Assembly: GCF_035594765.1 (NCBI RefSeq)
Contig: NC_085842.1
Coordinates: 30,046,782 to 30,110,781 of the forward strand
From: Anolis carolinensis
Taxonomy: Eukaryota
Direction: 5' to 3'
DNA length: 64,000 bases
Positions 9,487 to 57,323 of this stretch are shown here, piece after piece. The notes under the pieces are model-generated. The model did no database searches, was not told the DNA's origin, and saw nothing but the letters and a program-made list of their open reading frames with translations. The stretch's first letter is position 1, and every line of letters begins with the position of its first letter. The translations under genes and the position numbers were made by a program.

Positions 9487-10976
9487 ATGCTTGGTCTTGC
9501 CTTTTCCATATCATGCTCTCTCTTCATCCTGTTTTCACTGGCCTCCAATGCTGCTTCCAAAGATGACCTTGCGGTGGACACCAGCAGTGGCCCTGTCAAG
9601 GGTAAAACTCTCACCGTTGGCTCTGGCTCTGTGAGAGCTTATCTTGGCATCCCCTATGCTGAGCCTCCCTTGGGGAAACTGCGATTCCAGAAGCCTCTTC
9701 CACATCAACCATGGAATCAAATCTTTGAGGCCACCGACTTTGGCAATGCCTGTCCTCAATTACTTCTAACTCAAACACCTGAGGCAAAATTGTGGAATCC
9801 TAATAGGCCCCTGTCAGAAGATTGTCTCTTCCTCAACATCTGGGTGCCCCATCCACAGCCCTCTGTACCAATTCCCATTCTTGTCTGGATACACGGAGGG
9901 GGCTTTGTTGCAGGTACAAGTTCTCTGGATTTGTACAATGGAGCTTCTTTAGCTGCAACTGAGAATGTCATTGTGGCCTCCATGAATTACCGCCTGGGGG
10001 CTCTGGGCTTTCTTTCCTTGCCACCAGCCATCCCAGGAAACATGGGTCTGTGGGACCAACACCTGGCCCTGACCTGGATCAAGCAGAATGCAGCTGCCTT
10101 TGGTGGAGATCCAAGGCGGGTGACGATTTTTGGTCATAGTGCTGGAGCAGCCTTTGTTGGCTTCCATCTCCTCTCATCCAAAAGTGAGTCCCTTTTTGCC
10201 CAAGCTGTGCTTCAGAGTGGAGCCCCCAATGCCATCTGGGGTTGGGTGAGTCCTAAGAAGGCCAAGAATAACTCCTTTGAGCTTAGCCAGCTGCTGGGAT
10301 GTGGAGAAGGCAATGAAAATGAAATTGTGAGTTGCCTTCAGAAAAAAGATGCAATGGAATTTCCTCAGTACGAAACATCTCTGTTTCAGAAAAATAATTA
10401 TATTTTGGAATTCATCTTTGCACCAACAACAGATGGGGAATTTTTGACTGATGATCCTCAGAGTCTTTTAAACTCTCAGCTTGTGCAGACCAAACCTATT
10501 CTCACTGGTGTCACCTCAGATGAAGCGGCTTCCATGCTGGCTTTTATTTTTCCTGGAAACAATCACAGCCTAATCACTCGGGAACAATTTCTAGAAACAT
10601 TAAGAAATACAGTACGAAATGCAACTGAAGAAGATATTCAGGCTGTGGCCCTGAAGTACACTGAAGAAAGTCATGGCCTGGCAAAGTACCGTTCAGCCTT
10701 GGTGCAATCCTTGGGTGATTATTTCTTTGTATGTCCTGCAGCCGAAATTGCTGACCAGATGAGAAAAGCTGGGAGTCCTGTGTATGTTTATCTTTTTACA
10801 CATCACACCTCTGGCACTGTCTGGCCTGAGTGGGCAAAGGCAACCCATGGAGCTGAAGTCATTTATCTGTTTGGAAGCTTTAAGGCAGCATTGGAGGCCA
10901 ACAAAACACACACAGAGGCGGATGCAGCGCTCAGCCAGAGAATAATGCGATATTGGGCAGAGTTCGCCAGAACTGG
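9487..10976 (+). CDS. Cholinesterase-like gene 1, main coding exon (catalytic triad intact)
   Basis: Acceptor ttccag|9479, ATG 9487, signal peptide, LGIPYAEPP, WNPN..SEDCLFLN, HGGGF, GHSAG (Ser AGT 10138-10140), SDEA, THGAE (His 10846-10848), ends FARTG with GG|gtaagg phase 2 as in BCHE-type genes. Confidence 0.95.
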
Positions 10977-11146
10977 GTAAGGCATTTTTCTTGCTCATTC
11001 TTCTCTTCTTTATTGATAAAATCAGTACAATCTGAGTAACAGAATACACATTAATTTCTTCTCTGCATTTTCTATCCCGCATTACATATAATCAGAAACA
11101 GTGCTTGGTACCTTGTAATAGGAATAACTAATGAATTTTTAAGTTA

Positions 11147-14100
11147 CAGGTTGAGCATCCCTTCCCTGGAATTCTGAAATATTCCATCAGCCAAAATTGT
11201 CCACATTGGTGCCTAAGATTGCTGATCAATGCCAGATCCATCAATGGTAAGACCGCTGCCATTCAGGACTTGATCCTGGATTAGGGGGCGGATCTGGCTT
11301 GCATTACCGAGACCTGGCTGGACGAGCTGGGGGGAGTAAATCTCACTCAGCTGTGCCCACCAGGCCTCGGAGTGCATCAGCAGGCTAGGCTGGGGGGGCG
11401 CGGAGGAGGGGTCGCAGTTGTCTATCGGCAATCCATCGCCGTGGTCAGATGCTCTGTTCCGCAGGCATCTGGGTTTGAGTGCGTCCACCTGAGGGTGGGG
11501 AACCGTGATAGCGTGGGGTTTCTGCTGGTGTACCGCCCACCCCGCGACCCAGTAGTTTCCCTGACTGAGCTAGCAGAGGTGGTCTCCAATTTGGCCTTGG
11601 TCTCCCAGCGCCTGGTGGTGCTGGGAGACTTTAACATTCATGCTGAGACCCCCTTGACTGGTGCAGCTCAGGATTTCATGGCCGCCATGACGACCATGGG
11701 GCTATCACAAATTATAGCTGGTCCTACCCATCAGGCTGGACACACACTCGACCTAGTTTTTGTGGCGGACAGTGGAATGATCAGAGTGGAAGAACAAAAC
11801 ACCCTTCCTGTGTCATGGTCTGATAATTATCTGGTCAGTTTTAGACTTTCGGCGACCCTAAACCTCCGCAGGGGTGAAGGACAAATTAAGATCGTCCGCC
11901 CCAGGAGACTGATGGATCCGGAGGGATTCCTGAGGAATCTTGGGGTCCTTCCTGCCATGGAGCCTGGTGATCCTGTCGACGTCCTGGTCGATCTCTATAA
12001 CAGGGAAGTGACCAGGGCGATAGATACGATCGCTCCCGAACGCCCCATCACATTGTGTCATGACAAGCCGTCTCCCTGGTTCACCGGGGAGCTGGCTGTG
12101 ATGAAGCATATGAGGAGGGGGCTAGAGCGCACTTGGAGGAGTTCTCGGGGTGTGTCCGACCGAGCACGGGCTACAGCCTTTCTTAGGGCGTATACCATGG
12201 CTATACGGGCAGCCAAGGAGTCCTATATGACTACCCGTATAGCGTCTGCAGCAAATAGATCATCGGAGTTGTTTCGGGTCGTTGGGGAACTCCTTCAGCC
12301 ACCTGTGGTGGAGGAGACTTTTGACGACCCAGCAACTCGGTGTCGCGATTTCGCACACCATTTTGCAGACAAAGTCACTCAGATACACCTTGAGCTCGAC
12401 TCCAATTTCACCACAGTGCCAGGGGAGGTGATTGAGGCATCTGCTTGTCCGATTTTGTGGGATTCTTTTAGGCTTGTTCTTCCTGAGACCGTGGTGGAGG
12501 TCCTTGGGGCTGTGAGGGCAGCCACGTCGGCTCTGGACCCTTGCCCGTCTTGGCTAATTAAATCGACCAGGGAGGGGCTGGTTGATTGGTTTGTGTTGAT
12601 CGTTAATGCATCGTTGGAGCAGGGGGGTTTTCCATCTCATCTGAAACAAGCTGTGGTTCGTCCACTCCTTAAAAAGGTTTCCCTTGACTCCACGGTGCTG
12701 AACAATTTCAGACCAATCTCCAACCTCCCTTTCTTGGGTAAGGTGCTGGAGCGGGTGGTTGCCTCCCAGCTCCAGGGCTTTCTAGATGACATCAACTACC
12801 TAGATCAGTCACAGTCTGGTTTCAGGCCTGGTCACAGCACCGAGACAGCCTTGGTCGCCTTGGTGGATGACCTCCGTAGAGAGCTGGACAGGGGGAGTGT
12901 GACCCTGTTGGTTCTCTTGGACATCTCAGCGGCTTTCGATACCATTGATCATGGTATCCTTCTGGGACGACTCTCTGGGATGGGTCTCGGGGGCACGGTT
13001 TTGTCGTGGCTCCGATCCTTCCTGGAGGGTCGATCCCAGATGGTGAAGCTGGGAGACGCCTGCTCGGACCCCTGGCCTTTGAGCTGTGGGGTCCCGCAAG
13101 GCTCTATTCTGTCTCCCATGCTCTTTAACATCTACATGAAACCGCTGGGAGAGGTCATCCGGAGTTTTGGAGTTGGGTGTCACCTCTATGCAGATGACGC
13201 ACAACTCTACGACTCCTTTCCACCTAATTCCAAGGAGGCCTCTCGGGTGCTGGACGAGTGCCTGGCCGCTGTGTCTATCTGGATGAGGAGGAACAAGCTG
13301 AAGATCAATCCCGACAAGACAGAGGTCCTCCTGGTCGATCATAATCCTGACCGGGGTATAGGGTGGCAACCTGTGCTGGACAGGGTTACACTCCCCCTGA
13401 AGCCACAGGTCCGCAGTCTGGGAGTCCTCTTGGATTCATCGCTTATGCTCGAGGCTCAGGCGTCAGCGGTGTCTGGGAGGGCCTTTGTACAATTGAGACT
13501 CGTGCGCCAACTGCGACCGTACCTCGCGAAGGCTGATCTGGCCGGGGTGGTCCATGCCTTGGTCACCTCCAGACTGGACTACTGTAATGCGCTCTACGTG
13601 GGGCTGCCCTTGAAAACGGCTCGGAAGTTCCAACTGGTCCAACGAGCGGCAGCCAGGATGTTAACTGGGGCCCCTTACAGAGAGAGGTCAACCCTCCTGT
13701 TCAAGGAGCTCCACTGGCTGCCATTTACTTTCCGAGCCCAATTTAAGGTGCAGGTGCTTACCTACAAAGCCCTGAACGGTTTGGGACCATCCTACCTCCG
13801 TGACCGCATCTCCGTCTACGAACCCACGCGTTCACTTCGGTCATCTGGAGAGGCCCTGCTCGTGATCCCGCCTGCATCGCAAGCGCGGTTGGTGGGGACA
13901 CGAGACAGGGCCTTCTCTGTGGTGGCCCCCCGACTCTGGAACACCCTCCCCAAGGATCTCAGACAGGCCCCTACATTGGCAGTCTTCAGAAAGAACTTGA
14001 AGACCTGGCTGTTCCAATGTGCCTTCCCAGATTAATAGGAAATCTCCAACTCCAAGTCCCATAAGCACTTTATTAGAACTAGATCGTATGTCGCACTCTG

Positions 14101-14630
14101 CACTTGCCCTAGAAGCCTTATATATCACCTGTCACATCAGCACTTTTAATCTTGTACCCATTACTCTGACCCGGCCCAGTTTTATTGTGTTTTAGCATAT
14201 TGTTTATTGTTTGTTGTTTATACTGTTTTAATTTGCCTTTTGTTTTGTATTGTTATATTGTGTGTTGAGGCCTTGGTCTTTGTAAGCCGCATCGAGTCCT
14301 TCGGGAAATGCTAGCGGGGTACAAATAAAGTTTAATAATAATAATAATAATAAAAATAATAATAAGATAGCCACACATTTGTTTTCTGATGGTCCAGTGC
14401 ACACAAATTTTGTTTCATGTTCAAAATTGTTAAACATGTATACAATTATCTTCAAGCCTTGTGTATAAATTGTATTGGAAACATACATGAATTCTGGGTT
14501 TAGACTTGGATCCCATCTCCAATATCTCTCATTATGTATATATTTGCAACAACAGGCATTCCAAAATCTGAAAAAATATGAAATCAATAGACTTCTTGGC
14601 CAACCAATCCAACTAAGGATCCTCAAGTTG
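11147..14630. mobile_element. Tigger4/MER46-like DNA transposon remnant split by the L2 insertion
   Basis: CAGGTTGAGCATCCC start and AAGGATCCTCAAGTTG end; halves 11147-11219 and 14363-14630; copy at the homologous position in gene 4 intron (55026-55231) and a remnant in gene 3 (~37040-37290). Confidence 0.65.
11220..14362 (+). mobile_element. L2-clade LINE, 5'-truncated, near-intact ORF2 (APE endonuclease + reverse transcriptase)
   Basis: 887-aa ORF with GDFN, LDISAAFDTIDH, GVPQGSILSP, YADD, SRLDYCN, LHWLP; upstream in-frame NARSI..ITETWL interrupted by TAG at 11282-11284; (TAA)n tail; TSD TAAGAT at 11214-11219 and 14363-14368. Confidence 0.92.
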
Positions 14631-14911
14631 TTTATTTATTTTATTTAACAGCTTTATGTGGATTGCATCTGTTGCAGGTAATCACCCATATTAATTATGA
14701 AAATGAGGACTATGCATTTCTTTAGCTCAGAGTTTAAGCTTTTCCATTGCAACTGCTTTCAGTCAATGAATTCTTACATGGCCCCATAGATATAGGCATA
14801 TAAAATAATTATAAAATCACACATTTACTTATAAGAAATCAGCATTTGGAAGCCTTGCTAAACAGGCTTCATTTCCTTTTTATGAAGTCCAATTTAAGCA
14901 TTTTCTGCAGA

Positions 14912-15117
14912 GTCACAGAATCTTAGAGTTGGAAGAGACCACATGGGCTATCGAGTCCAACCTCCTGCCATGCAGAAAAAGCCCTGACAGATGGCCATCC
15001 AGCCTCTGTTTAAAAGTTTTCAAGAAAGGAACTTCCACCTCACTCCGAGGCAGAGAGTTCCACTGCTGTTAAACAGCTCTTACAGTCAGGAAGTTCTTCC
15101 TAATGTGCAGGTGGAAC
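14912..15117 (-). mobile_element. CR1 LINE 3' end fragment
   Basis: Reverse complement of CR1 3' end (gagttggaagagacc...aggaagttcttcctaatg). Confidence 0.7.
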
Positions 15118-16355: not shown

Positions 16356-16501
16356 GAATCCCACAGGATCAGAGAAGAAAGAAGTGGAGTGGCTGCCTTA
16401 TAACCCTACACAGCAGAACTTCTTCCATCTTAGCACTGAGCAAGCTCAGGTTATGCCGGTATCGCCTGCTCGACACTGTGGCCTTTTTGCTACAAATCGA
16501 A
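16356..16501 (+). CDS. Cholinesterase-like gene 1, exon 3 (read-through frame open to 16584)
   Basis: Acceptor caatag|G; NPTGSEKKEVEWLPYNPTQQNFFHLSTEQAQVMPVSPARHCGLFATNR; donor A|gtgagg; homologous to exon 3 of genes 3/4 (9 nt shorter). Confidence 0.9.
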
Positions 16502-17539
16502 GTGAGGCCAGCTCCATCATATGTTGCATATCTCTGTGGGCCATGATGCTGATGTTTCTAATAAGATTAATTGTGTTGGATTAGCTAATAGCTATCTTTA
16601 TATTATCATATGTGTTGTAATGGGCTTGGTCCTCTCTTATGTTCCTGAGTAAGAGAGGGGACCTCAAAATTCTATCAACTGCTACTACTTACTAATCTAC
16701 CCACTTATTTAAGCTGCATCTATGCTGTAGAATTAATACAGTTTGACATTGTTGTCCAAATTAGGCTCCATCCGCAAGGTGCCAGGTTTCAATATTTCTC
16801 AATCAAAACACGCAGAGATGAGGGCAAAATCAAAGGTCAATTTTATTGCTTCATTGATCAAGGAAGGATGTTAGGGAAGAGAGAGAATCCTAAATCTGAC
16901 ATACCTTCTGTTATTGGCTGTCAGTATTGTGTGGTGGACTTTGTTCTAATTGACACGAAGTTACAGTCTATTTTCTTCTTGGTCTAATCTGCCTTCATTG
17001 TTGTCATATTTTACAACTGTGATCGCTGCACTGTGTATGGAAGGAACTTTAATAAAGCTTTATTGGAGAAAATCTGTCTTTGTTGCTTTGCTGTTTTCAG
17101 TCTTCTTTTCCAATGGCTGGAGGGCTTTCTGGGAGAGGAAATGAATATTTGCTTATGACAATAGTGACAATGGTCACTGGTGGGTTATCTGGCTGGAATG
17201 GCGCTTAGGTGGTGGGACTTCCTGTTTTTTCCTAAGTGGGATAATGGGGATCTGGGTTGTGGTTGGCCTTTGAATCCCTTAAATGATCAGCTGCCAGTTG
17301 ACATCCTTATCCATTGTGCTCTGCCCAAGTGTGTTCTGGGAGACTAACCGATAAGAAGGTTACTGTGTCCTAATGGTGATCTGCGCCCATTGAGCTGCTT
17401 TGTGAAAAGGGGAAGAACCAGGTGGGTTTTCCCAGTGTGGGGCTTTCTGCTTCTGATCTCAGACAGGGACACAGGGAGATAATTAATCTGAGCTCCATTT
17501 TCAGGAACATGGACATGGTAGGGTTGCTGCATACAGTAT

Positions 17540-18533
17540 ATGCTTAAATGCTAATAGGGACAGAGAAAAGGCAGAACTACTCAACAGCTTCTTTGCTTCA
17601 GTCTTCTCTCAAAAGGTTATCCATGTTCAACTTGGAGAGAATGGAAAAGAGGATTAAGTAAAAGAAATGGACCACAGAATAGTTAAAGGGGCAATACAGG
17701 AATATCTGGCTAATCTAAATGAATTCAAGATGAACAATATTCAAGGTGTTAAAAGAACCAGTAGAATAAATTTCAGAACCAATTGCAACCATCTTTGAGA
17801 ATCTCTAGAGAACAGGAGAAGTTCCAACAAATTGGAAGAATGTAAATATTATCCACATCTTCAAAAAGGGAGGGGAAAGGACCCAATTACTGCTTACTGA
17901 GCCTGGCACCAATACCACAAATGGTTCTGAAGCACTTCATTAAACAGACCATCTGTAAACACTTAGAAAAAATGCCAGATTCACAAAAAGTCAACATGGG
18001 TTTCTCAAAAACAAATAATGCCAGATTAACCTTTTCAGCTTTTGACAGAGTTTAAACAGCCTTTATTGGCATACAGCAACCAAATCACAACACAGGTATA
18101 TAAAACAAGAGGAAGTCACAGATAAAAAGAAAACATACTTAAAAGTTACTAATCTCAAGGATAAAATTTGCAACAGTCTCACAAAAGAATTCATCAGAGT
18201 TACAATCTTGGTAGATGAAAGGAATGTTGCAGATGTGGCCTATCTTGATTTCAGTAAAGTCTTTGACAAAATTCCCCATGACATTCTCACAAAGAAGCTA
18301 ATAAAATGTGGGGCAGACAATGCTACTGCGCGGTGAATTGGGAATTGATTGACTGGCTGAACCCCAAAAGTGCTCCCCAATGGCTCTTATTTATTCATTC
18401 TGGATGACAGAATGTCTGGAGGACAGAATAGAAGGCATGCTTATTAAATTTTCAGATGGCTCCAAATTGGGGAGTAGTTAATAGTTAATACCTCAGAGGA
18501 CAGGATCAGAATCCAAAATGATTTTATCAGATT
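17540..18533 (+). mobile_element. Old degenerate CR1 LINE fragment
   Basis: Decayed RT-coding sequence (gatttcagtaaagtctttgacaaaattccccatg = DFSKVFDKIPH) with stops and indels. Confidence 0.75.
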
Positions 18534-19818
18534 TTAGAAACAAATGCGGTCATTGCTAATAGTCAACACGGATTTACCAAAAACAAGTCATGCCAGACTA
18601 ATCTGATCTCTTTTTTCGATAGAGTTACGAGTTGGGTCGATACAGGGAATGCTGTGGATGTAGCCTACCTGGATTTCAGTAAGGCCTTCGACAAAGTCCC
18701 CCACGACCTTCTGGCAAATAAACTAGTAAAATGTGGGCTAGACAAAACTACGGTTAGGTGGATCTGTAATTGGCTAAGCGAACGAACCCAAAGGGTGCTC
18801 ACCAATGCGTCGTCTTCATCATGGAAAGAAGTGACAAGTGGAGTGCCGCAGGGCTCCGTCCTGGGCCCGGTTCTGTTCAACATCTTTATTAACGACTTAG
18901 ACGAAGGGTTAGAAGGCACGATCATCAAGTTTGCAGACGACACAAAACTGGGAGGGATAGCTAACACTCCAGAAGACAGGAGCAGAATTCAAAACGATCT
19001 TGACAGACTAGAGAGATGGGCCAAAACTAACAAAATGAAGTTCAACAGGGACAAATGCAAGATACTTCACTTCGGCAGAAAAAATGCAAATCAAAGATAC
19101 AGAATGGGGGACGCCTGGCTTGACAGCAGTGTGTGCGAAAAAGACCTTGGAGTCCTAGTGGACAACAAGTTAAACATGAGCCAACAATGTGATGCGGCTG
19201 CTAAAAAAGCCAACGGGATTCTGGCCTGCATCAATAGGGGAATAGCGTCTAGATCCAGGGAAGTCATGCTCCCTCTCTATTCTGCCTTGGTCAGACCACA
19301 CCTGGAATACTGCGTCCAATTCTGGGCACCACAGTTGAAGGGAGATGTTGACAAGCTGGAAAGCGTCCAGAGGAGGGTGACTAAAATGATTAAGGGTCTG
19401 GAGAACAAGCCCTATGAGGAGTGGCTTAAAGAGCTTGGCATGTTTAGCCTGCAGAAGAGAAGGCTGAGAGGAGACATGATAGCCATGTACAAATACGTGA
19501 AGGGAAGTCATAGGGAGGAGGGAGCAAGCTTGTTTTCTGCTGCCCTGCAGACTAGGACACGGAACAATGGCTTCAAACTACAGGAAAGGAGATTCCACCT
19601 GAACATCAGGAAGAACTTCCTGACTATGAGAGCTGTTTGACAGTGGAACTCTCTCCCCCGGGCTGTGGTGGAGGCTCCTTCCTTGGAGGCTTTTAAGCAG
19701 AGGCTGGATGGCCATCTGTCGGGGGTGCTTTGAATGCGATTTCCTGCTTCTTGGCAGGGGGTTGGACTGGATGGCCCATGAGGTCTCTTCCAACTCTACT
19801 ATTCTATGATTCTATGAT
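18534..19818 (+). mobile_element. Young 5'-truncated CR1 LINE (RT C-terminal half)
   Basis: 328-aa [54 protein letters not shown]; (ATTCTATG)n tail. Confidence 0.92.
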
Positions 19819-22283: not shown

Positions 22284-23734
22284 ATGCCTCGCCTCCTCCT
22301 TTCTGTTTTTGGTCTTTTATTCCTCTCACTGATTTCTGCCTCTGAAGATGATACCGTGGTGGTGACCAACAGTGGCTCCATTCAAGGCAAGAGAATTCTG
22401 GCTGGTCCTGGCTCTGTGACTGCCTATCTTGGCATCCCTTATGCTAAGCCCCCGCTAGGGAAACTCCGGTTCCAGAAGCCTCTTCCACATCCACCCTGGA
22501 CCCACGTGTTGGAGACCACCAGGTTTGGCAATTCTTGTCCCCAAGCAAATGCTTCTGGACTCTTTGATATAGACATATGGGTTGCCAATACACCACTTTC
22601 AGAAGACTGTCTTTTCCTCAATATCTGGGTACCCCACCCAAAGCCCTCCACCCCAGCACCTATCCTTGTATGGATCCAAGGTATGGGTTATGTCACTGGC
22701 ACTGCTTCCTTGGAGATCTATAATGGAGCCACCTTAGCTGCCACAGAGAATGTCATTGTGGCCTCCATGAATTACCGCTTGGGAGCTCTGGGTTTTCTTT
22801 ATATGCCACCACATGCCCCAGGAAATGTTGGCTTATGGGACCAACACCTGGCTCTGAAATGGCTGAAGGAGAACGCAGCTGTCTTTGGTGGTAACCCAGC
22901 TCAATTGACTCTTGTTGGCCACGGTGCTGGAGCAGCCATGGTGGGGTTCCACCTTCTCTCACCTGTAAGCCAACCACTTTTTTCTCATGCTGTGCTCCAG
23001 GGTGGCGTTCCCAATGCCATCTGGCCCTGGAAGGATACCCAGAAAGCAAAGCTAGATGCAGAGATGGTAAGCCAAGAAGTGGGGTGTCCTCTAGATGCTG
23101 ACACGGTAAGCTGTCTACAGAGAATAGAAATTGGGGACAAAAAATTTTCTCAACTGACTGCTATCAATTCCTTGACAGTAGATGGAGAATTCCTGACAGA
23201 TGAGCCAAGAAAACTCCTAAAGGATGCAAATTTTCAGGGTAAATCAATTATCACAGGCATCTTAGCTGATGAAGGATCTACATTTGTATTGTATATGTAT
23301 CCTAACACCAAATCCAATGGTGGGATAGTGACCTGGGAACAGCTTTATCAAGGGGTGATGGGAACAATGGCAAATGGAACAAATGAAGCTGTTGCTCAGG
23401 TTGTAGCACGGAAGTTCAGTGAAAACTATCATGGGCCAGAGCAGTACCGTTTGGCCTTTGCTCAATATTTTAGAGATTACTTCTTTGTGTGCTCTTTGGA
23501 TGAATTTGCTGCAAAGATCCAAGAAGCTGGGAGGCCAGTCTATGTTTATTCCTTCGATCACCGTTCATCTGGTTCCACCTGGCCTGAATGGGTAAAGACG
23601 CCCTATGGGTCTGAGGTGCCTTACCTGTTTGGAAGCTTCAAAGCTGCTTTGCCAACAAGCCAGCCAGTCACAGAGGCAGAAAAAGCACTGAGCCGTAGAG
23701 TGATGCGATATTGGGCCGAGTTTGCCAGAAGTGG
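22284..23734 (+). CDS. Cholinesterase-like gene 2, main coding exon; predicted catalytically inactive
   Basis: Acceptor ctacag|22279, ATG 22284, signal peptide, intact frame. Motifs altered: IQGMGY (oxyanion hole), GHGAG (Ser->Gly), QGG, PYGSE (His->Tyr); Glu (ADEG) kept. Ends FARSG GG|gtaagt. Confidence 0.93.
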
Positions 23735-24743: not shown

Positions 24744-24907
24744 AAACCCTACTGGATCAACACCCGGTGAGGGGCAATGGCCACTGTACAATGCCAAGGA
24801 GAAGAAGCTCTTTCACATCAGCACAGGAGCACCCCAACTCAAGCCAGTCTCACCTACTCCTCTCTGTGATTTCTTGACTAATCTGAATGTGAATGCAGCC
24901 AGCACAA
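24744..24907 (+). CDS. Cholinesterase-like gene 2, exon 3
   Basis: aaag|A NPTGSTPGEGQWPLYNAKEKKLFHISTGAPQLKPVSPTPLCDFLTNLNVNAAST A|gtgagt, 164 nt. Confidence 0.9.
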
Positions 24908-27858: not shown

Positions 27859-27866
27859 ACCAATAG
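27859..27866 (+). CDS. Probable terminal coding exon of gene 2 (adds NQ*)
   Basis: Strong acceptor ttttcccttgtctctacag|; phase 1 gives A+AC CAA TAG; ATTAAA at 27974; downstream 28107-28145 is homologous to 58337-58373, which lies 3' of gene 4's last exon. Confidence 0.5.
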
Positions 27867-28301: not shown

Positions 28302-29029
28302 CCAGGCTACTAACTGGAGCAAATTACAAGACGCGGTCTACCCCCCTGTTTAAGGAGCTCCATTGGCTGCCATTTATTTTCCAAGCCCAATTCAAGGTGC
28401 AGGTTATCACCTATAAAACCCTTAACGGTTCGGGACCCACCTACCTTCGCAACCGTATTTCCCCCTATGAACCTGCACGGTCTCTCCGTTCATCAGGGGA
28501 GGCCCTCCTCTCGATCCCACCACCCTCGCAATCGCGGTTGGTGGGGACGAGGGAGAGGGCCTTCTCCGTCGTGGGCTCTCCCCAGGGAGATTAGGCAGGC
28601 CCCTACCCTCCTTATTTTTCAGAAGAGCCTGAAAACTTGGCTCTTCCAACAGCCTTTTGGCAACTGATTTCCTTAGTTTGAGATTGCCCTGTTTGTCCAT
28701 TCTATTTTTATAGCATTTTTACTCCTTGCCGTATATAGTTTTTAGGTGTATGCCTCCCCCAGCACCTTAATGGGATAATAGTCCCTGGTACCTCCTCTTT
28801 CCTAATCTGTATTGTTATAAAACTATTTGCACCTTTCTGGCCCGCTACCCTTTTTAGGAGCCAACCCAAGTTTTTATCAAAGTGTGCTTATTGTTTATTG
28901 GTATATGGGATTTTATTTGTTTATGATTTGTTTTTATTGCTGAGTTTTATATTGCTTGTTGCCTGGGCTTGGCCCCATGTAAGCCGCCGCGAGTCCCCTC
29001 GGGGAGATGGGGCGGGGTATAAAAATAAA

Positions 29030-35528: not shown

Positions 35529-37003
35529 ATGCTTGGTCTTGCCTCTTCCATATTATGCTCCTTCTTCATCCTGTTTTCACTGACCTCCAATGCTGCCTCC
35601 AAAGATGACCTTGTAGTGAACACCAGCAGTGGTCCTATCAATGGCAAAGCTCTCACCATTGGCTCTGGCTCTGTGAGAGCTTATCTTGGCATCCCCTATG
35701 CTGAGCCCCCCTTGGGGAAACTGCGATTCCAGAAGCCTCTTCCACATAAGCCATGGAGTCAAATCTTTGAGGCCACTAACTTTGGCAATGCCTGTCTTCA
35801 GTCAGTTCTTTCTCAAACACCTGAGGCAAAATTGTGGAATCCCAATAGGCCCCTGTCAGAAGATTGTCTCTTTCTCAACATCTGGGTGCCCCATCCACAG
35901 CCCTCTGTACCAATTCCCATTCTTGTCTGGATACACGGAGGGGGCTTTGTTGCAGGTACAAGTTCCCTGGATTTGTACAATGGGGCTTCCTTAGCTGCGA
36001 CTGAGAATGTCATTGTGGCCTCCATGAATTACCGCCTGGGGGCTCTGGGCTTTCTTTCGTTGCCACCAGCTGTCCCAGGAAACATGGGTCTGTGGGACCA
36101 ACACCTGGCCCTGACCTGGATCAAGCAGAATGCAGCTGCCTTCGGTGGAGATCCAAAGCGGGTGACGATTTTTGGCCACAGTGCTGGAGCAGCCTCTGTT
36201 GGCTTCCATCTCCTTTCACCTAAAAGTGAGCCCCTTTTTGCCCAAGCTGTGCTTCAGAGTGGAGCTATCTACGCTTCGGCAAGTCCCGGGAAGGCCAAGA
36301 ATAACTCCCTTGAATTTAGCCAGCTGTTAGGATGTGGAGAAGGCAATGAAAATGAAATTGTGAGCTGTCTTCAGGACAAAAATGCAGTGGAATTTCCTCA
36401 GCATGAAGCATCTCTGAGTAAGAAAAAACCTCTGTATCCTGTATTTGAACCAACAGCCGATGGGGAATTTTTGACTGATGATCCTCAGAGTCTTTTAGAC
36501 TCTCAGCATGTTCAGATCAAACCAGTTCTCACTGGTGTCACCTCAGATGAAGCAGCTCCTATCGTGGATTTAATTATTCTTGGAAGCAATTATAGCCAAA
36601 TCACTATGGAAATTTTTTTAACTGTATTAAGGTATCTAGTGCGAAACACAACTGAAGAAGATATTCAAGCTGTGGCCCTGAAATACAGTGAAGAGAGTCA
36701 TGGCCCAGCAAAGTACCGTTCAGGCTTGGTGCAGTCTTTGGGTGATTATTTCTTTGTATGTCCTGTAGCCAAATTTGCTGGCCAGATTAGAAATGTTGGG
36801 AGTCCTGTGTATGTTTACCTTTTTACACATCACACCTCTGGCACTGTCTGGCCTGAGTGGGTAGGGGTGCCTCATGGAGCGGAACTCATTTATCTATTTG
36901 GAAACTTTGAGGCAGCATTTCAGGCCAACAAAACACATACAGAAGCGGAAGAAGCACTCAGCCGTAGGATAATGCAATATTGGGCAGAGTTTGCCAGAAC
37001 TGG
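35529..37003 (+). CDS. Cholinesterase-like gene 3, main coding exon (triad intact)
   Basis: Acceptor ttccag|35521, ATG 35529; HGGGF, GHSAG, SDEA, PHGAE; 3-codon deletion in QSGA---IYAS; ends FARTG GG|gtaagg. Confidence 0.95.
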
Positions 37004-39385: not shown

Positions 39386-39540
39386 CAAACCCACAGGATC
39401 AGAGAAGAAAGAAGTGGAGTGGCCACGTTACAATGCTACACTGGAGAACTTCTACCATCTTAGCACTGAGCCAGCCCAGGTTCTGCCAGTATCACCTGCT
39501 CGACACTGCAATCTTTTTAAAACACATACTGTAAATCCCA
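39386..39540 (+). CDS. Cholinesterase-like gene 3, exon 3
   Basis: ccacag|C KPTGSEKKEVEWPRYNATLENFYHLSTEPAQVLPVSPARHCNLFKTHTVNP A|gtgagt, 155 nt. Confidence 0.92.
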
Positions 39541-42368: not shown

Positions 42369-42388
42369 AGAAATCAGATGAAGATTGA
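42369..42388 (+). CDS. Cholinesterase-like gene 3, terminal exon truncated by insertion (KKSDED*)
   Basis: Acceptor homologous to gene 4 (tttagccatacttggagaagttc...ag|agaaatcaga); stop TGA 42386-42388 is the first 3 nt of the insertion. Confidence 0.8.
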
Positions 42389-42654: not shown

Positions 42655-42811
42655 GAAGATGGTAAGAGATACCAGTCTTCACTAGCAGGAACTATTGTAA
42701 AATGGTATCAGGAAAACCTGGATACATGTAAGTAGCCACTTGTTAGGAATGGCCACAAAAATCTTTCCAAATATCCAGTTGACTAATTTCTGTGAACCAT
42801 GGCTAAAATTA

Positions 42812-44148: not shown

Positions 44149-45693
44149 TATCAAATAAAAGAAAACATTAGGGTTATTCATTGGGTTTTACTTCATTCCG
44201 CATTATCTTGGTGAGTAGAAGTTTAGTTTATTTATTTTTTTTCTAAATCTGGGTAACCTGCTCTTCCCTCACTTCATTCTTTAAAAAATATTCAAAGCGG
44301 TCTTTGTCTGGTCTGAGGGTGGGACTTGATCCAGTGGGATCTCCAGAAGGATCTTGGGATATCTGTGTAAAACAACTATGTCAAATATTCTGCAAGAAAA
44401 GTCTTGAATTGCAAATAGTTTTTGAAAACTGCATAGTTTGTGTGAAGTGTTGGCTCTGCCTTTTCCTCTCCTTTGCTTCAGTTCCCTCTGTTTAGGTTTT
44501 CCCAATAGTGTAGATATCTCCATTTGTATTAGTTTTGGGTGGAGCATAAAATCTCCCTAGTTGGTCTGTTCCAGTTGCCTGTCCAGAGCTTTCTTGCCAG
44601 GCTCCCTTTTTCTTTCTGCATCAGAGCTACAGTGATTAGAGGCCTGGTCATTGTTTGGTATTTTTAGATCCAGCAATCCAAACAGATATCCTTAGCACCT
44701 GCATTTAGCAATATTCATATACCATTAGTCTCAGAGACAACAGAAGCTTGTGGTCAGCCCAGGTTTCACAAAGTGGAAGACCAAGACAGCTTATAAACAC
44801 CATCTTGTAATCCATCACTTTACATCAGAGGCAAAGGACTTTTAAGGATTCCAGAGAGATGACTGCAACCAGCAAAATCTCCTTTTGTTATGTATTGTTT
44901 TAAGCTATCTTACAATAGTCCCGGTTGGAGTTAGCCCTTTGTTCTTCCTGTTTTCAGTAAACTCATTTTGGTTAACTTTCATCTTGCCTAAAGTGCTTCT
45001 GTATGGTAAGAGTCCCGATCTTAAAAGAAGGTATACAGATAGCCCTCGAGTAAAGCCAGACACTATAGTTTTCCTAAAGGCTCGGGCGTGCCATCACAAT
45101 TTGCAAAAACATTCTCCCAGTCAGAAGAATATTGCAGAATTTACTCTACCTTATGGAGACATCATTGAATCAGTCCTGATAATTTCCTGGATTTTGAACA
45201 GTCCAAATGTGAATAATGTTCATGTGGCAAACCTCTTGTCATTGACATCTGTCTGGTTGGAATGAGTTCTGGTTGATTGGATTCTGCCATATAATGAGAT
45301 GAGTCTACATTGCCATATAATCCAGTGTTGTGCTGTCCAGATGTTCTTGGACTATAACTCCCAGCATGCGTTACTGATGGCTATTGGGCACTGCAATCTA
45401 ACACCATAGGGAGGGCCACATCATTCCCAGGTGATACCATTTTTTAAAGTGACCTGCCACAAAACCTTTGAATGTTGAGAAGAAAGAAGGTATAAAAACT
45501 TTTAGCCTTTGTTTTGGAATCTAAAATTCTGTGTTAAAGGCAGAGCTGTTTCTTTCCCGGGTGAAGCCAGCTACTTTATTTTTCCTTTTGAAAAATGAAA
45601 AGCTACACCAGTAACAGCATGCTTACTGCTTACTGATCACTGATACTCTGTTCTGATTTTCTTTTTTATAAAATGCAAAATGCTATTCTATAA

Positions 45694-45829
45694 CAATGGT
45701 TCTCAACCTGTGGGTCCCCAGATGTTTTTGGCCTTCAACTCCCAGAAATCCTAACAGCTGGTAAACTGGCTGGGATTTCTGGGAGTTGTAGGCCAAAGCA
45801 CCTGGAGACCCACAGGTTGAGAACCACTG
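45694..45829. mobile_element. hAT MITE (same family as 6485)
   Basis: CAATGGTTCTCAACC...GGTTGAGAACCACTG; absent from the paralogous block at ~61740. Confidence 0.85.
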
Positions 45830-47084
45830 TTATAGGATAACCACAAAGGGGTTAACAGAGGACAGTAACGATTGTTGAGGCAGACTTTGAAGTTTACAAA
45901 ACATACATTGCAAAATAATCTGGAATCTTGCAAACAAGTTGTGACCTTTTTTGAGGTAAGTGTATCTGTGATTCAAAATGGCACGATGAAGACTTGATCC
46001 TTACAGAATACATACAAATCCCATAATGCCCTCAGTAGCCTCCTTTCTTTCTGTACTTAATAAAATAATGTTCTTTGACTCATTATATGAGAGATGGATG
46101 TCTCCCCCCAATCTGTCCAATGTTCCTCTATCTCAACATAGTGATTAACTAACAGTTTATCATACAGGAACAAGAATGGATACATACTTTCAGAGAGCTT
46201 AACAGGATGAAAAAACATGTAGATCATGGAATCATAAAGTTGGAAGAGAATGCATGGGCCATCCAGTCCAACCCCTTGCCATGCTGGAAAAGCACAATCA
46301 AAGCACCCCCCAACAGATGGCCATCCAGTCTCTGTTTAAAAGCTTCCAAAGAAGGCCATAAAAGTAGCAGAGTTATCCACTGTAAGAACGGCATAGAAAG
46401 TGAACATATTTGGCATTGTTGGAAACGAAAACAACTGTTCTCTTAATGAAATGGAGAAATGTCTGTTGAAACCTTCAAGTGGTAAAAAGCCCTCTTTCCT
46501 CCCTGGATTTGAACCGCCGACCTTTCAGTCAGCAAGTTCAGCAGCTCAGTGGTTTAACCCACTGCACCACCGGGGACTTTAATTTGGTAAGGATGCAGAT
46601 TTAAATTAAAATGCAGAATCCTCCTCAAATTCCAACTTGATATCATCAGTACCATTGTATACTTATGAACAGAATGTCTTGATGATTCTTGAGTGGATGC
46701 TCTTACTGCTTTCCCATTTTCTGGTGCTCTAATGGTCCTACATTTGTCAGGGATTTTATTTTCAGTAGAAATCCATAGCAAAATCATGGTAGAGCTGCAT
46801 TTTGGCCGAGTGCAAAACGTGTATGGAATGCTTTCTGCATTGTTATCACAGAATGGTTGTTTTCATAATACGCTTGAACAACAAAGCACCAATGTTCACT
46901 GGTCCAACTAATGATGGGAACTGAAAACAGCAGGGCCTAATCTACTGAATTAGACCTACACCACCACTCTACATCCACTACAGCTGACACATTCCCCCCT
47001 TCAAATATGGGAGATCTTTGTGACCCAGCCTGTACAGATAAAGAGTGACATGACAGTATAAACGTATCTGCATATAGTGTATAC

Positions 47085-49075: not shown

Positions 49076-49321
49076 GTCATCATCATCTTTAACGCTCCCA
49101 CAAAGGACATCTCAAAGACTCTGAATAGCCCACTGTAGATGAAAATATCAGTTTTTTTTACAATAAAGACTAATGTTTAGCTTCTCTTTTATTAAGTTTT
49201 TTTTTCAATACAGTTGGATTCTTCTGTTATGAGAGAGTCTTAGAAATATAGTAATGATATTCCACTAGTGCTGGAAGTTGTACGTACATGCTATCTGGCA
49301 TCAATTACCCTGACACATATA

Positions 49322-50189: not shown

Positions 50190-50221
<32 letters not shown>

Positions 50222-50619: not shown

Positions 50620-50817
50620 TGCATTTCCTTCCTCAGAATGGTCCAAAACAATATATATCTGAACTGATTGACATAGTAAGACATTTACCAGTTATGAGAA
50701 ATATCGATGTGGCAATACTACTTAAAGGGGGAAATGTTCAGAAGAGTGGGAATTGGCCACAATCTCTTGAACAAGACAATTAACCAGCAGGCTGTTTGTG
50801 GGCGTAAGCAGGTAAAT
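50620..50817 (+). promoter_or_regulatory. Putative promoter/non-coding exon 1 (type A) of gene 4
   Basis: Homologous to 8250-8448; donor AAGCAG|gtaaat (exon end 50811), locally duplicated ~60 bp downstream. Confidence 0.5.
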
Positions 50818-52172: not shown

Positions 52173-52975
52173 CAGGGGTCCCCAAACTAAGGCCCGGGGG
52201 CCGGATGCGGCCCTCCAAGGTCATTTACTCGGCCCCCGCCCTAAGTTTTAGACTTAGGCTTGCCAAAAATCTGAAATGACTTGAAGGCACACAACAACAA
52301 CAATCCTACTTAACTTGACTATCTCATTGGGCAGAGGCAGGCCCACACTTCCCATTGAAATCCTGATAGGTTTATATTGGTTAAAATGGTTTTTATTTTT
52401 AAATATTGTATTGTTCATTCATTTACTAATATTGTGCTATGGTAATAATATAATATATTGTGTATACATATAATATTGATAATAATATTATAATGTAATA
52501 CAATATAATATTTATTTATTACGGTATTTCTACCCCGCCCTTCCCACCCAGTAGGGGACTCAGGGTGGCTAATAATAATATTAATACAATGTAATAATAT
52601 TGTATAATATAATAATATTAATTATATATTATATATTAAATGTAATATTACTAATAATAATATGGTACAGTGGTATAGTACAATATAGTAATATATAATG
52701 CTAATATTGTGCTATGCTAATAATATAATATATTGTATGTACATACAACTTGTAAGCCGTTCTGAGTCCCCTTTGGGGTGAGAGAGAGTGGAGTATAAAT
52801 TTAGCAAATAAATAAATAAATAAATGATTGTTGTTGGGGTTTTTTGTACTACAAATAAGACGTGTGCAGTGTGCATAGGAATTTGTTCATTTTTTTTTTC
52901 AAATGATAATTCAGCCCCTCAACAATCTGAGGGACCATGAACCGGCCCTCCACTTTAAAAGTTTGAGGACCCCTG
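52173..52975 (+). mobile_element. hAT non-autonomous element, OposCharlie/OC1-like
   Basis: TIR CAGGGGTCCCCAAACT...AGTTTGAGGACCCCTG; perfect 8-bp TSD TTCTAGAG. Confidence 0.88.
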
Positions 52976-53148
52976 TTCTAGAGCATGAGCAGTATGCCAT
53001 TGAGCAGAGCTTATTTTTTAAAAAGATACAAATATACTGGGGTTGTTGACGTGAATATAATATGGCCAGCCGTTGAGTGAAAATGGAAGAGGGCCTCCTT
53101 TGTATTTCCTGTTAACTGACTTAGGACTTTTTCCTTCCAGTGACTGCA

Positions 53149-54638
53149 ATGCTTGGTCTTGCCTCTTCCATATCATGCTTCTTCTTCATCCTGTTTTCAC
53201 TGACCTCCAATACTGCCTCCAAAGATGACCTTGTGGTGGACACCAGCAGTGGCCCTGTCAAGGGCAAATCTCTCACCGTTGGCTCTGGCTCTGTGAGAGC
53301 TTATCTTGGCATCCCCTATGCTGAGCCTCCCTTGGGGAGACTGCGATTCCAGAAGCCTCTTCCACATCAACCATGGAGTCAAATCTTTGAGGCCACTGAC
53401 TTTGGAAATGCCTGTCCTCAGTCAGTTCTTTCTCAAACACCTGAGGCAAAAATGGTGAATCCTAATAGGCCCCTGTCAGAAGATTGCCTCTTTCTCAACA
53501 TCTGGGTGCCTCATCCGCAACCCTCTGTACCAATTCCCATCCTTGTCTGGATACACGGAGGGGGATTTATTTCAGGTACAAGTTCCCTGGACTTGTACAA
53601 TGGGTCTTCCTTAGCTGTGACTCAGAATGTCATTGTGGCCTCCATGAATTACCGCCTGGGGGCTCTGGGCTTCCTTTCCTTGCCACCAGCTGTCCCAGGA
53701 AACATGGGTCTGTGGGACCAACACCTAGCCCTGACCTGGATCAGGCAGAATGCAGCTGCCTTTGGTGGAGATCCAAAGCGAGTGATAATTTTTGGTCAGA
53801 GTTCTGGAGCAGCCTCTGTGGGTCTTCACCTCCTCTCACCCAAAAGTGAGTCCCTTTTTGCCCAAGCTGTGCTTCAGAGTGGCGCTCCCAATGCTATTTG
53901 GGCTTGGGCAAGTCCTGAGCAGGCCAAGAATAAATCCCTTGAGCTTAGCCAACTTCTGGGATGTGGAGAAGGTAATGAAAATGAGATAGTAAACTGTCTT
54001 CGGGGGAAAAATGCAATGGAATTTCCTCCGTATGAAACATTGCTGGTACTGAAAAGTAAGTTTCTTATGTGTCTCCCCTTCATACCAACAACAGATGGGG
54101 AATTTTTGACTGATGATCCCCAGAGTCTTTTAGACTCCCAGCATGTGCAGACCAAGCCAATTCTGACTGGTGTCAACTCAGATGAAGCAGCTTCCTTGTT
54201 GATTTTTATTTTTCCTGGAAGCAATCACAGCCTAATCAATCATGAACAATTTCTAAAAGTATTAAGAAGTGCATTGCAAAATGCAACTGAAGAAGAAATT
54301 CAGGCCGTGGCTCTCAAGTACAGTGAAGAGAGTCATGGGCCAGCAAAGTACCGTTCAGCCTTGGTGCAATCCTTGGGTGATTATTTATTTGTATGCCCTG
54401 CAACTGAATTTGCTGCCAAGATCAGAAAAGCTGGGAGTCCTGTGTATGTTTACTATTTTACGCATCACACTTCTGGCACTGTCTGGCCTGAGTGGGCAAA
54501 CGCAACCCATGGAGCTGAACTCATTTATGTGTTTGGAAGTTTTAAGGCAGCATTGGAGGCCAACAAAACCTACACAGAGGCCGAGGCAGCACTTAGCCGT
54601 AGGATAATGCAATATTGGGCGGAGTTCGCCAGAACTGG
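53149..54638 (+). CDS. Cholinesterase-like gene 4, main coding exon (triad intact, choline-site Trp lost)
   Basis: Acceptor ttccag|53141, ATG 53149; KMVNPN (W->V), HGGGF, GQSSG, SDEA, THGAE; ends FARTG GG|gtaaga. Confidence 0.95.
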
Positions 54639-55025
54639 GTAAGACATTTGACTTTCTCATTATCCTGTTTTATTCAGAAAGTTAGTTCAATCTGACTAGC
54701 AGAATGCACATTATTTTGTTTTATTTATTTATTTACTTCACTTGTATACTGCTTTTATCACCCCGGATAGGGGACTCAAAGTGGTTCCCAAACATATTAT
54801 GGCAAAATTCATTGCCTACACAACAATAATAAAATAAACTATTAATTGAATCATAAAAATACAATAACATTAACATTAAAACATAGAGTTAAAATATATT
54901 AATTTAAACATCAAAATCACATAATCTAAAAATCAAAGTCAAGGGTCATTCCAATAACAATTTCTATTTTCTTCTCTGACATTATTTCCTGCATAGGATA
55001 TCTTAAGAAACAGAATTTTAATTTA

Positions 55026-55231
55026 CAAGTTGTCTATCCCTTATTTGGAATTCCAAAATCAGAAACATTCCATATGCGAAAATTGTCCACATTGGATGAT
55101 GGTTCAGTGCACACAAACTTTGTTTCATGCTCAAAATTATTTTTTAAAATGCAGTTATTCCAAAATCTGGAAAAAAATGACATCAAAAAACTTCTTGGGT
55201 CAATCCTTCTAAATAAGGGAAACTCAAGTTG
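55026..55231. mobile_element. Tigger4/MER46-like remnant (homologous position to 11147-14630)
   Basis: aaaattgtccacattgg..gatggttcagtgcacacaaactttgtttcatg..aagggaaactcaagttg. Confidence 0.65.
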
Positions 55232-55499
55232 TATTTAACAGTTTTTTATGGACTCCATCTGTTGCAGGTTGTCACCCACATTTATTTATGGGGATGCGAA
55301 CTATGCAGTTGTTGAATTGCAATTCCTAATCATCATGATTTGTTTGAATTGCTGGGAGGCAGAGTTCAAGATGATTTTTGATGATGATGACAAGTAGTGA
55401 TAGTAGGGGTTGTCTCATGCAAGGACCTGCAAAAAAGTTCTATTTGCATGCAGGCAAAGTCTGATGTTAGCAGAGCATTTCTAGATCCATATCAGAGGA

Positions 55500-55878
55500 T
55501 TATCACATGTAAGGGTTAGGGAGCTGTGAAGGTTTAACTTGGTAAAATGAAGGCTGAGCAGGGATATAAAAGTCATCTTTAAATATTTAAAAGGACATCA
55601 CATTGAGGAGGGGACAAGCTTCTTGTTCCCTGCTCTTCAGATTGGACATGAAGTAGGAGATTCAAATTGCAGGAAAAGAGTTTCCACCTAAATATTAGGA
55701 AGAACTTCCTGATCTGTTCAACAGTGGAATATATTGCTTGGGAGTGTGGTGGAATTTCCTTCTCTTAAGGTTTTTAGGAGGAGTCTGGATGGCCATCTGT
55801 CAGGACTCTGATTTTATGTTCCTGAATGACAGATTGGAGTTGGACTGGATAGCCCTTGTGATCTTTTCCAATTCTGTT
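55500..55878 (+). mobile_element. Old CR1 3' fragment
   Basis: Similar to 19400-19800 (ggaagaacttcctga...gttggactggat...ttccaattct). Confidence 0.7.
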
Positions 55879-56689
55879 GCTCAACTGATTAACTTTAGTG
55901 ATGATAATGATCGCATCACATTGAGGTCAGTAAGCCAGCGATAGGGGGGTTGGATTCACCATGGATCATGATGAATCCGGTGTGAGGAACCCATAGCTCA
56001 GTATTGCCCCTTGCCTCATCCTACGGTGGGAAGCATTGCAACCTGGCTTCTCTCAGTTCTCCTCTATTGAAACCTCCAGTGGTCCTGGTGCTGCCTCGAA
56101 TGACAGTTCAACCTCACTTCAGGCATGGATCCCCACTGGAAATAGATCTACATTGTGTAATAGGATCCGGTGGGCTCCGTGCCTGAAGTGAGGTTGAACT
56201 GTCATTGGACAGGCAATTTTGTCCATGTGATGAGGTCGTAAGAGTTGGCTAGCCAACCACATTGATTAATAGCCATCATTGATCAAACCCTCCCATGACT
56301 CATGTCCTGACTTGCATATTGAGCAATCAGGTTACATGACATTCAAATGTGTTGACTTGATTGAGGACATATTGCATATTAGTGAGAACATAAAATGAAG
56401 TATGTTGGATCATGCCAAAGGCAATCTTTTCTATGTACTACATGTTGCCACAGCAGGCAATCAGACTGCATTGGGTCATGAGAGGAAGAAAAAATTATCT
56501 TGATTCCCTCCCTCATGTTTTGTTTACATCCAGAATAACTTTATTGACTTAAATTGTGCACTCCCTGTTGTTCCTTGTTCAAAGCTAAAGGAACCTCCAA
56601 ACTTCGTAATCTCTTGTATCATTTCTTCCAGAGTTTACATGCAACACCACAGCCTGCTGGTTATAAATATATTGTTATTTCCTCCATAG

Positions 56690-56844
56690 GAAACCCACAG
56701 GATCAGAGAAGAAAGAAGTGGAGTGGCCACTCTATAATGCTACGCTGCAGAACTTCTTCCACCTTAGCACTGAGCCAGCCCAAGTTATGCCAGTATCGCC
56801 TGCTCGACACTGCAATCTTTTTAAAACACATACTGCAAGTCCAA
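56690..56844 (+). CDS. Cholinesterase-like gene 4, exon 3
   Basis: ccatag|G KPTGSEKKEVEWPLYNATLQNFFHLSTEPAQVMPVSPARHCNLFKTHTASP A|gtgagt, 155 nt. Confidence 0.92.
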
Positions 56845-57180
56845 GTGAGTAACTTTTTATCTTATGTTGGATACCTCTGTGGGCAATGTCATGGTGTTTC
56901 TAATAAGTTTAGTTTGTGTTGGATCAGCTTTCACTTTAATCTAATTGTCATATGTGTTCATCAGTTCCATGTTCATGAGTAGGAGAGGGGATTCATGAAT
57001 TTTATCAACTATCACTATCTATGCTGCTGATTTGGGATGCATCCACATATTGCTTACACTTGTTTTCCAGAATCTGTGTCTTCTTTCGGATTCCTCTTCC
57101 ATTCAAAGTCTTCTTAGTTATTTAGCCATACTTGGAGAAGTTCTCATTAATATCCATTCCTTTCCCCCCTTTTTTTGCAG

Positions 57181-57323
57181 AGAAATCAGAAAATAATGAT
57201 GCCGGAGACCAGTCCTCACTAGCAGGGACTGTCATGAAAAAGCATCAGGAAAACCTGGATACCTGTGACTCTTCACGTGTTAGGAATGGTGACAAAGATC
57301 TTTCTAAATGTCCAACTGACTAA
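57181..57323 (+). CDS. Cholinesterase-like gene 4, terminal exon
   Basis: Acceptor tttcccccctttttttgcag|; phase 1 gives KKSENNDAGDQSSLAGTVMKKHQENLDTCDSSRVRNGDKDLSKCPTD*; AATAAA 57343-57348. Confidence 0.8.

Follow-up and report, generated by a model that had tools for sequence, protein, structure and literature searches.

Relation to known cholinesterases and esterases

Vertebrate cholinesterases are usually treated as the products of two genes, ACHE and BCHE, and together with the carboxylesterase clusters, the neuroligins and certain atypical fish and frog proteins these are the described systems to which the present locus can be compared. The locus lies in a 64,000-nucleotide stretch of Anolis carolinensis (assembly GCF_035594765.1, contig NC_085842.1, positions 30,046,782 to 30,110,781, forward strand; 'the window', from whose first letter all coordinates below are counted) and is, as a sequence-only reading had claimed, a tandem array of cholinesterase-like COesterase genes, four of them, head to tail and all on the + strand. 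From sequence comparison we favour, with moderate confidence, the view that these genes belong to an old, secreted reptile family derived from a cholinesterase, in which tandem birth and death yields paralogue-specific pockets and dead copies may persist as binders.

The family resembles BCHE in its fold, catalytic triad, oxyanion hole and three disulfide pairs (genes 1, 3 and 4), in a peripheral site that is not aromatic and in a variable acyl loop. The gene structure may also be alike, with one large coding exon ending in phase 2 at the equivalent of Gly478, followed in the window genes by an exon of 146–164 bp; human BCHE would have the same exon layout and intron positions, though no paper was found to confirm this. 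In contrast to BCHE, the family forms a separate clade on a long stem, squamate BCHE being another gene, and it has an omega loop of 25 rather than 28 residues, no Asp70, His or Gln at 197, Ala or Ser at 440 and no WAT tail; moreover, it is multi-copy, with many catalytically dead members. ACHE is matched as well as BCHE in fold and sequence score, and RefSeq labels some members 'acetylcholinesterase' or 'acetylcholinesterase-like', but the family lacks an aromatic peripheral site, Asp70, Glu197 and an equivalent of Tyr440, as well as the intron that lies inside the catalytic domain of ACHE near residue 356.

The carboxylesterase (CES/Ces) and insect beta-esterase clusters are likewise tandem birth-and-death arrays of secreted alpha/beta-hydrolases with variable pockets, and Drosophila Est-6 and the juvenile-hormone esterases carry His or Gln before the catalytic Ser. 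Fish CES, however, falls outside the cholinesterase clade (100/100), and the catalytic domain of the reptile family is almost wholly one exon. Like the neuroligins, gene 2 keeps the cholinesterase fold but not the catalytic Ser; unlike them, it has no transmembrane or cytoplasmic part, and it nests in the reptile family among active relatives.

The atypical BChE of medaka and the proteins of the frogs Rana and Staurois also have substituted gorges and no T-peptide (for medaka, PMC3045457). The frog proteins have His before the Ser and are a weakly supported sister group of the reptile family (81/84 with a fish protein; 74/61), but the frog protein examined keeps a 28-residue omega loop with Asp70. 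In this ranid group (P0312-P0323, itself a weak sister of the family), P0312 has His before the Ser and uses Asp for its catalytic acid, and its omega loop is intact. The medaka enzyme, unlike the reptile family as we read it, is GPI (glycosylphosphatidylinositol)-anchored and hydrolyses choline esters (PMC3045457).

Catalytic and gorge residues

Residues are numbered after python BChE, whose nine landmark residues coincide with the human numbers; membership of the active-site gorge was set by alignment, not by measured distance. The aromatic gorge positions are those of Table 1 in PMC3045457.

Genes 1, 3 and 4 (large coding exons at 9487..10976, 35529..37003 and 53149..54638, all +) keep the Ser/Glu/His triad and the Gly-Gly-Gly oxyanion loop, which gene 2 (22284..23734, +) does not, and each has the three conserved disulfide pairs. 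The Ser motif is GHSAG in gene 1, which begins with a signal peptide, and GQSSG in gene 4. An AlphaFold model of the gene 1 large exon (predicted local distance difference test, pLDDT, 91.4) superposes on swine BChE with Z 55.9 and a root-mean-square deviation of 1.8 Å over 459 residues at 45% identity, and it fits BChE and AChE equally (Z 54–56). To judge from these features, genes 1, 3 and 4 look like working enzymes, while gene 2 looks catalytically dead: its catalytic Ser is Gly in both A. carolinensis models, its His is Tyr, its oxyanion loop reads GMG, with Met, and its acyl loop is ~10 residues shorter. The same motifs appear in the older RefSeq model XP_003217977.2.

The omega loop spans 25 residues from Cys to Cys in all four genes as against 28 in python BChE, and a matching 3-residue gap opens in the comparison with a human BChE variant, which agrees with the length difference claimed in the sequence-only reading. 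Also borne out were the missing peripheral-site Asp, absent from the loop segment near position 70 in genes 1, 3 and 4, and the replacement of the Glu before the Ser (GESAG), residue 197 being His, His, His and Gln in genes 1 to 4. Residue 440 is Ala or Ser rather than Tyr. At the choline site, Trp82 is present in genes 1, 2 and 3, but gene 4 has Val, as does its A. sagrei orthologue; that reading had overlooked both this loss and the fact that gene 2 is a conserved pseudo-enzyme. Gene 4 further carries Ala199 to Ser, and gene 3 has a 3-residue deletion at 226–228, Trp231 to Tyr and a 2-residue deletion in the acyl loop. An unpaired extra Cys occupies residue 308 in the acyl loop of gene 4, where the A. 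sagrei orthologue has Ser.

Positions 199, 227, 287, 328 and 332 all differ among genes 1, 3 and 4. Changes at these same five positions re-targeted human BChE to cocaine, a non-choline ester (PMC3347506), and acyl-pocket residues determine substrate size (PMC3045457).

Variation and selection among genes 1, 3 and 4

The three genes with intact triads are close to identical in their N-terminal core, with 8–10% of residues 1–225 differing between them, and diverge by 62–77% in the acyl loop (277–290); this contrast had been claimed from the sequence alone, and all three acyl-loop strings quoted for it are present. The helix after the catalytic Glu, said to differ just as sharply, does so in gene 3 (6/9 residues), whereas genes 1 and 4 differ at 2/9. 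Across the gorge segments, which were chosen after the alignment had been seen, 35/73 columns are variable against 100/451 elsewhere (Fisher p 1e-5). The proportion of nonsynonymous differences (pN) is 0.206 in the gorge and 0.077 elsewhere at equal synonymous proportions (pS, 0.228 vs 0.224), so that the variation is not spread evenly and the gorge carries a nonsynonymous excess. At the 14 aromatic positions from PMC3045457, the nonsynonymous-to-synonymous rate ratio (omega) is 2.1 against 0.48, the same direction as in the gorge segments.

Overall omega for these genes is 0.35–0.45, and codon models give 1.0–1.2 for the gorge against 0.36–0.41 for the remainder. Gorge omega exceeds background in the gorge-segment tests (p <= 0.024), and the difference persists when multi-nucleotide changes and a free local rate are allowed (p 0.0025–0.004), though for the set of first-shell residues the support weakens to p 0.04–0.06 under a free local rate. 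These sequence tests show the gorge of genes 1, 3 and 4 evolving faster than the rest of the protein. In comparisons of site models M1a and M2a, a class of selected sites was preferred over 518 codons (p 2.6e-5), over 509 codons without the tail (p 0.0004, or 0.0036 with multi-nucleotide changes) and in the C-terminal half alone (p 0.005 and 0.014), but not in the N-terminal half (p 1.0); M2a places ~7% of sites at omega ~5. Positive selection at some sites is thus likely. The pattern that would have refuted the sequence-only reading, even variation with no nonsynonymous excess, was looked for and not seen; a class of sites above 1 is supported (p 0.0004–0.014), while the omega of the gorge as a whole is not significantly above 1.

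Silent sites are themselves uneven, with pS 0.151 in residues 1–225 and 0.284 in 226–478, and the nearest neighbour of gene 3 is gene 1 over residues 1–225 (92%) but gene 4 over the second exon (91%). Since the N-terminal halves are alike even at silent sites and neighbours change along the gene, gene conversion among genes 1, 3 and 4 is suggested and, on these sequences, probable.

Gene 2 and the comparison with Anolis sagrei

Against its A. sagrei counterpart P0007, gene 4 differs at 5/73 gorge sites and 43/441 sites elsewhere, and gene 2 differs from P0121 at 1/63 gorge sites, whereas genes 1, 3 and 4 differ pairwise at 24–29 of 71–73. For genes 4 and 2, then, the aligned gorge appears to differ between paralogues yet be kept between orthologues. 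Identity to A. sagrei is highest for gene 2 (95%, against 83–91% for the others), which marks it as a maintained pseudo-enzyme and no decaying copy. In A. sagrei, Sceloporus, Pogona, Elgaria, Varanus and Thamnophis the orthologues carry the same His-to-Tyr change, but those of python and most other snakes keep the His. The Sceloporus undulatus orthologue, P0122, is modelled with C-terminal EGF repeats; these occur in no other match, so the model is probably mis-joined.

A reptile-wide family and its origin

Homologue searches returned 402, 383 and 589 matches, and the best 120 listed of each come from squamates, tuatara, turtles and alligators, most of them bearing the automatic name 'cholinesterase-like'; no bird or mammal is among the best 120 listed, which is no proof of absence. 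Many copies per species often sit on one chromosome-sized contig, and Erythrolamprus reginae has at least 13 clusters. Our family table has 224 rows, comprising the matches of >=470 residues and the four window genes; because rows are redundant, they are not gene counts. The 25-residue omega loop is found in 207/224 rows and Gln or His at residue 197 in 185/224 (Glu in 17/224); the full triad is kept in 169/224, and Ser or His is missing in 55/224, in 3 of them via gaps in incomplete models. Trp82 is kept in 156/224 and Tyr440 in 3/224. The claim of a lineage-specific radiation does not survive these counts, since the short loop and the residue 197 change extend across squamates, tuatara, turtles and alligator; the remodelled gorge is accordingly reptile-wide, and only the latest duplications are at anole level, the sub-expansion of genes 1, 3 and 4 being shared with A. 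sagrei.

Conservation was compared between 109 family rows (thinned from the 224 at 80% identity) and 27 canonical cholinesterases, mostly unnamed invertebrate matches picked by score to lamprey AChE, a set that left out the atypical frog and fish enzymes. Conservation in the canonical set is higher inside the gorge than outside it (0.62 vs 0.55), whereas in the family it is lower (0.57 vs 0.70), a shift in relative rate with Mann-Whitney p 5e-9. Positions conserved in the canonical set were lost in the family more often in the gorge (15/28) than elsewhere (22/100; p 0.002). Asp70 is present in 89% of the canonical panel vs 2% of family rows, and Glu197 in 93% vs 6%.

In a 47-row tree, 32 family rows form one clade (100/100) on a stem of 0.61 (0.61–0.67 across trees), separate from snake BCHE, within which three different A. 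sagrei proteins are the respective partners of genes 1, 3 and 4 on the family side. True squamate BCHE with a WAT tail exists on a separate branch: the python and Candoia sequences form a branch of their own (100/100) with the family outside it, and in Candoia and Liasis BCHE and family genes lie on different contigs, whose lengths point to separate chromosomes in these two snakes. Family and cholinesterases together are separated from three fish CES domains at 100/100, so a cholinesterase derivation, as claimed earlier, holds at that level; the narrower derivation from BCHE is favoured without the approximately unbiased (AU) tests being decisive. A 21-row tree groups the family, the frog proteins and BCHE at 85/88. 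In that tree, in which the AChE reference is partial, joining the family to BCHE is not rejected (p-AU 0.27), while forcing it into a clade with mammalian AChE costs 17.25 log units and is borderline (p-AU 0.0525). The best 21-row topology pairs family and frog proteins (74/61), and the 47-row tree leaves the sister relation to BCHE or ACHE unresolved. The sole jawed-vertebrate AChE in the trees is a partial sequence, and the trees hold no neuroligin; with these references an origin on the BCHE side is favoured, not proven.

Pseudo-enzymes also occur outside the window, in an iguanian group with Asn for the catalytic Ser (P0021, P0030, P0035, P0063, P0017 and P0020) and in turtles (P0339-P0390), many of which have Asp, Gly or Cys there, with several near-identical copies in sea turtles; Lepidochelys kempii has family members with Asp, and XP_073166346-348 are members from Lepidochelys. 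Among the 194 family rows whose tail after the last Cys could be read, 0 tails are hydrophobic and none is WAT-like, although 1 has three Trp. GPI anchoring as a family trait was ruled out on this count (0/194), the read-through tail of gene 1 alone being hydrophobic. No published description of the family was found in a search that lay outside most subscription journals. The ESTHER database has a 'cholinesterase-like' class.

Gene models and other elements in the window

Each gene has one coding exon of ~1.5 kb, whose GT donor lies in phase 2 at the Gly aligned with BChE Gly478, then a short second exon and, in genes 2–4, a third, the introns following the order Gly478 phase 2, then phase 1. 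Reading frames and splice sites are intact in 4/4 genes. The Pfam COesterase profile PF00135 scores genes 1 and 4 at 476 and 475 bits against a curated cut-off of 27, and the gene 2 protein, identical to RefSeq, falls in PF00135 clusters; NCBIfam profiles gave weak lipase matches only, far under cut-off. Translations of genes 1, 2 and 3 are identical over the aligned length to the A. carolinensis RefSeq models XP_062825636.1, XP_003217977.3 and XP_003218004.2, respectively. The WAT tetramerisation peptide is absent from the last exons of genes 1–4.

The next exon of gene 1 (16356..16584, +), when followed as far as its stop codon in the way RefSeq models it, encodes a 27-residue hydrophobic tail. 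An alternative, weaker donor follows position 16501, and a search for a homologue of exon 4 in gene 1 found none. The read-through tail itself (16502-16584, +; 27 residues) resembles a GPI signal or membrane anchor. Fragments of a CR1-like reverse transcriptase lie at 18046-19800 (+), between genes 1 and 2, where the last exon of gene 1 would be expected. Gene 2 continues with a 164-bp coding exon (24744..24907, +) and ends two residues into its last (27859..27866, +; two residues and the stop), which is the only acceptor-plus-codon match in the interval to the RefSeq C-terminus; a neuroligin-type transmembrane helix and cytoplasmic tail are absent. Gene 3 has a 155-bp second coding exon (39386..39540, +) and a last coding exon with a short charged tail and stop (42369..42388, +). 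A relic at 42668-42790 (+), ~280 bases past this early stop, is 80% identical to the last exon of gene 4, from which we infer that the tail of gene 3 was shortened. The second coding exon of gene 4 is also 155 bp (56690..56844, +), and its last (57181..57323, +) encodes a 47-residue hydrophilic tail without a WAT peptide.

The intron after the gene 1 large exon holds a recent-looking long interspersed nuclear element (LINE; 11192-14035, +) with a 916-residue open frame containing endonuclease and reverse-transcriptase domains, one in-frame stop just upstream and ~56% guanine and cytosine. UniRef gene models P0004 and P0013 join esterase to this element, probably wrongly, and a fragment of it (79%) lies at 28302-28574. 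The window further contains a minisatellite at 7185-7520 (16 copies of a 21-bp unit), a tandem repeat at 60471-60746 (3.9 copies of a 70-bp unit) and, at 6469-6623 and 45684-45839, short palindromic elements that are 83–84% self-complementary, like miniature inverted-repeat transposons.

Discussion

In the reading that we favour, the family ancestor would have lost those parts of the gorge that guide cations, namely Asp70 along with three omega-loop residues, Glu197 and Tyr440. Working outside the synapse as soluble monomers or dimers, the proteins of genes 1, 3 and 4 would putatively cleave esters by the usual acyl-enzyme mechanism. Each duplication would have been followed by re-tuning of the acyl loop and of two helices, the one after the catalytic Glu and the one at 345–358, partly under positive selection, each paralogue presumably taking a different ester, most likely a neutral and lipophilic one. 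Some copies, gene 2 included, would have lost catalysis and yet been maintained by purifying selection, binding being their most plausible role.

Several observations weigh against this account or qualify it. Variation equal to that of the gorge is seen in the helix at 345–358 and in the tail that follows the last Cys, so that the claim of a hypervariable gorge stands as a gorge faster than its scaffold and not as variation confined to it; residues 356–357 of that helix lie at the gorge rim. With a free local rate, gorge omega is 0.96–1.05 and acyl-loop omega is 1.8, the latter not significantly above 1 (p 0.32–0.36), and without the acyl loop the M1a–M2a comparison in the C-terminal half gives p 0.06. 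All codon models are our own implementation and were run on three sequences with a star tree, a gapped acyl-loop alignment and probable gene conversion. Genes 1 and 3 retain Trp82, Tyr128 and Trp430 and differ from their nearest A. sagrei proteins at 13–24 of ~72 gorge sites, which indicates that paralogue identity is not always fixed and turnover continues. The acyl loop varies among true BChEs too (Table 2 of PMC3045457). Finally, neither the sand-lizard femoral-gland table nor the part of the marine-iguana proteome table that was accessible (PMC9000839, PMC8143647) contains a family member, which mildly disfavours femoral glands as the site of action.

A number of these points would follow if constraint had simply been relaxed, that is, if redundant esterases of low specificity let the gorge drift near-neutrally once choline specificity was lost, with conversion keeping the N-terminal half alike. 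Because free-rate gorge omega is close to 1 and that of the acyl loop is not significantly higher, relaxed constraint would account for part of the gorge signal; in the gorge-segment tests omega cannot be told from 1 (p 0.28–1.0), the lower pS of residues 1–225 and the change of neighbours along the gene fit such conversion, and stretches outside the gorge vary as well. As the whole explanation it is nevertheless unlikely, given that a site class above 1 emerges even in the C-terminal half and with multi-nucleotide changes, that genes 4 and 2 keep their gorges relative to A. sagrei, and that all four frames and splice sites are intact at an overall omega of 0.35–0.45.

Alternatively, binding may have come first, the proteins being secreted carriers or scavengers of lipophilic ligands such as scent compounds or dietary toxins, with the gorge as pocket and catalysis dispensable. 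Loss of Ser or His in several separate groups (gene 2, the iguanian-and-other Asn group, turtles; 55/224 rows together) would suit this idea, and gene 2 is the best conserved of the four against A. sagrei. In the Rathke's gland secretion of sea turtles, moreover, the main glycoprotein is said to be an esterase-family protein. That link was not found in the literature search, however, the femoral-gland tables are negative, the rows give no gene counts and the triad is whole in 169/224 rows and in genes 1, 3 and 4, and we regard this order of events as less probable still than relaxed constraint alone. That the genes are still cholinesterases, extra BChE-like enzymes acting on choline esters with altered acyl preference, is improbable: BChE and AChE are the best matches in sequence and fold, Trp82 survives in most rows with Tyr128 and Trp430 beside it in genes 1 and 3, and fish BChEs with substituted gorges do hydrolyse choline esters (PMC3045457), but Asp70, Glu197 and Tyr440 are nearly all lost in the family, gene 4 has Val at 82, and squamates possess a true BCHE with a WAT tail on a separate branch. 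A role in venom was dismissed because no evidence supports it; gene 2 has viper orthologues known by name, but the accessible part of a viper venom-gland preprint makes no mention of cholinesterase.

Thus the array of secreted, cholinesterase-derived genes that we favour appears to work like the tandem carboxylesterase radiations of other animals, built here on a cholinesterase, and holds no BCHE orthologue; by the sequence comparisons above, it would be older and wider than one lineage and include pseudo-enzymes. A bolder proposal, which we hold tentatively and with some doubt, is that reptiles, possibly together with frogs, have a third, unnamed lineage of vertebrate cholinesterases not seen in birds and mammals, consisting of diversifying secreted pocket proteins, active and repeatedly dead, that would process lipophilic chemical signals or toxins from the diet, or carry them, and whose gorge sites would be positively selected. 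Interest in such a finding is tempered by the fact that animals commonly show tandem radiations of esterases whose pockets vary and that these genes are already auto-annotated. If true, it would affect how 'cholinesterase' annotations are read in the genomes and gland transcriptomes of reptiles, and how esterase activity is interpreted when pesticides are monitored in these animals. At the positions that engineers alter to re-target BChE the paralogues form a natural substitution series, and they offer a direct test of how this fold can pass from acting on choline esters to acting on others and from a catalytic to a binding role; a third, multi-copy and reptile-wide lineage with a remodelled gorge would, if true, alter the two-gene picture of vertebrate cholinesterases.

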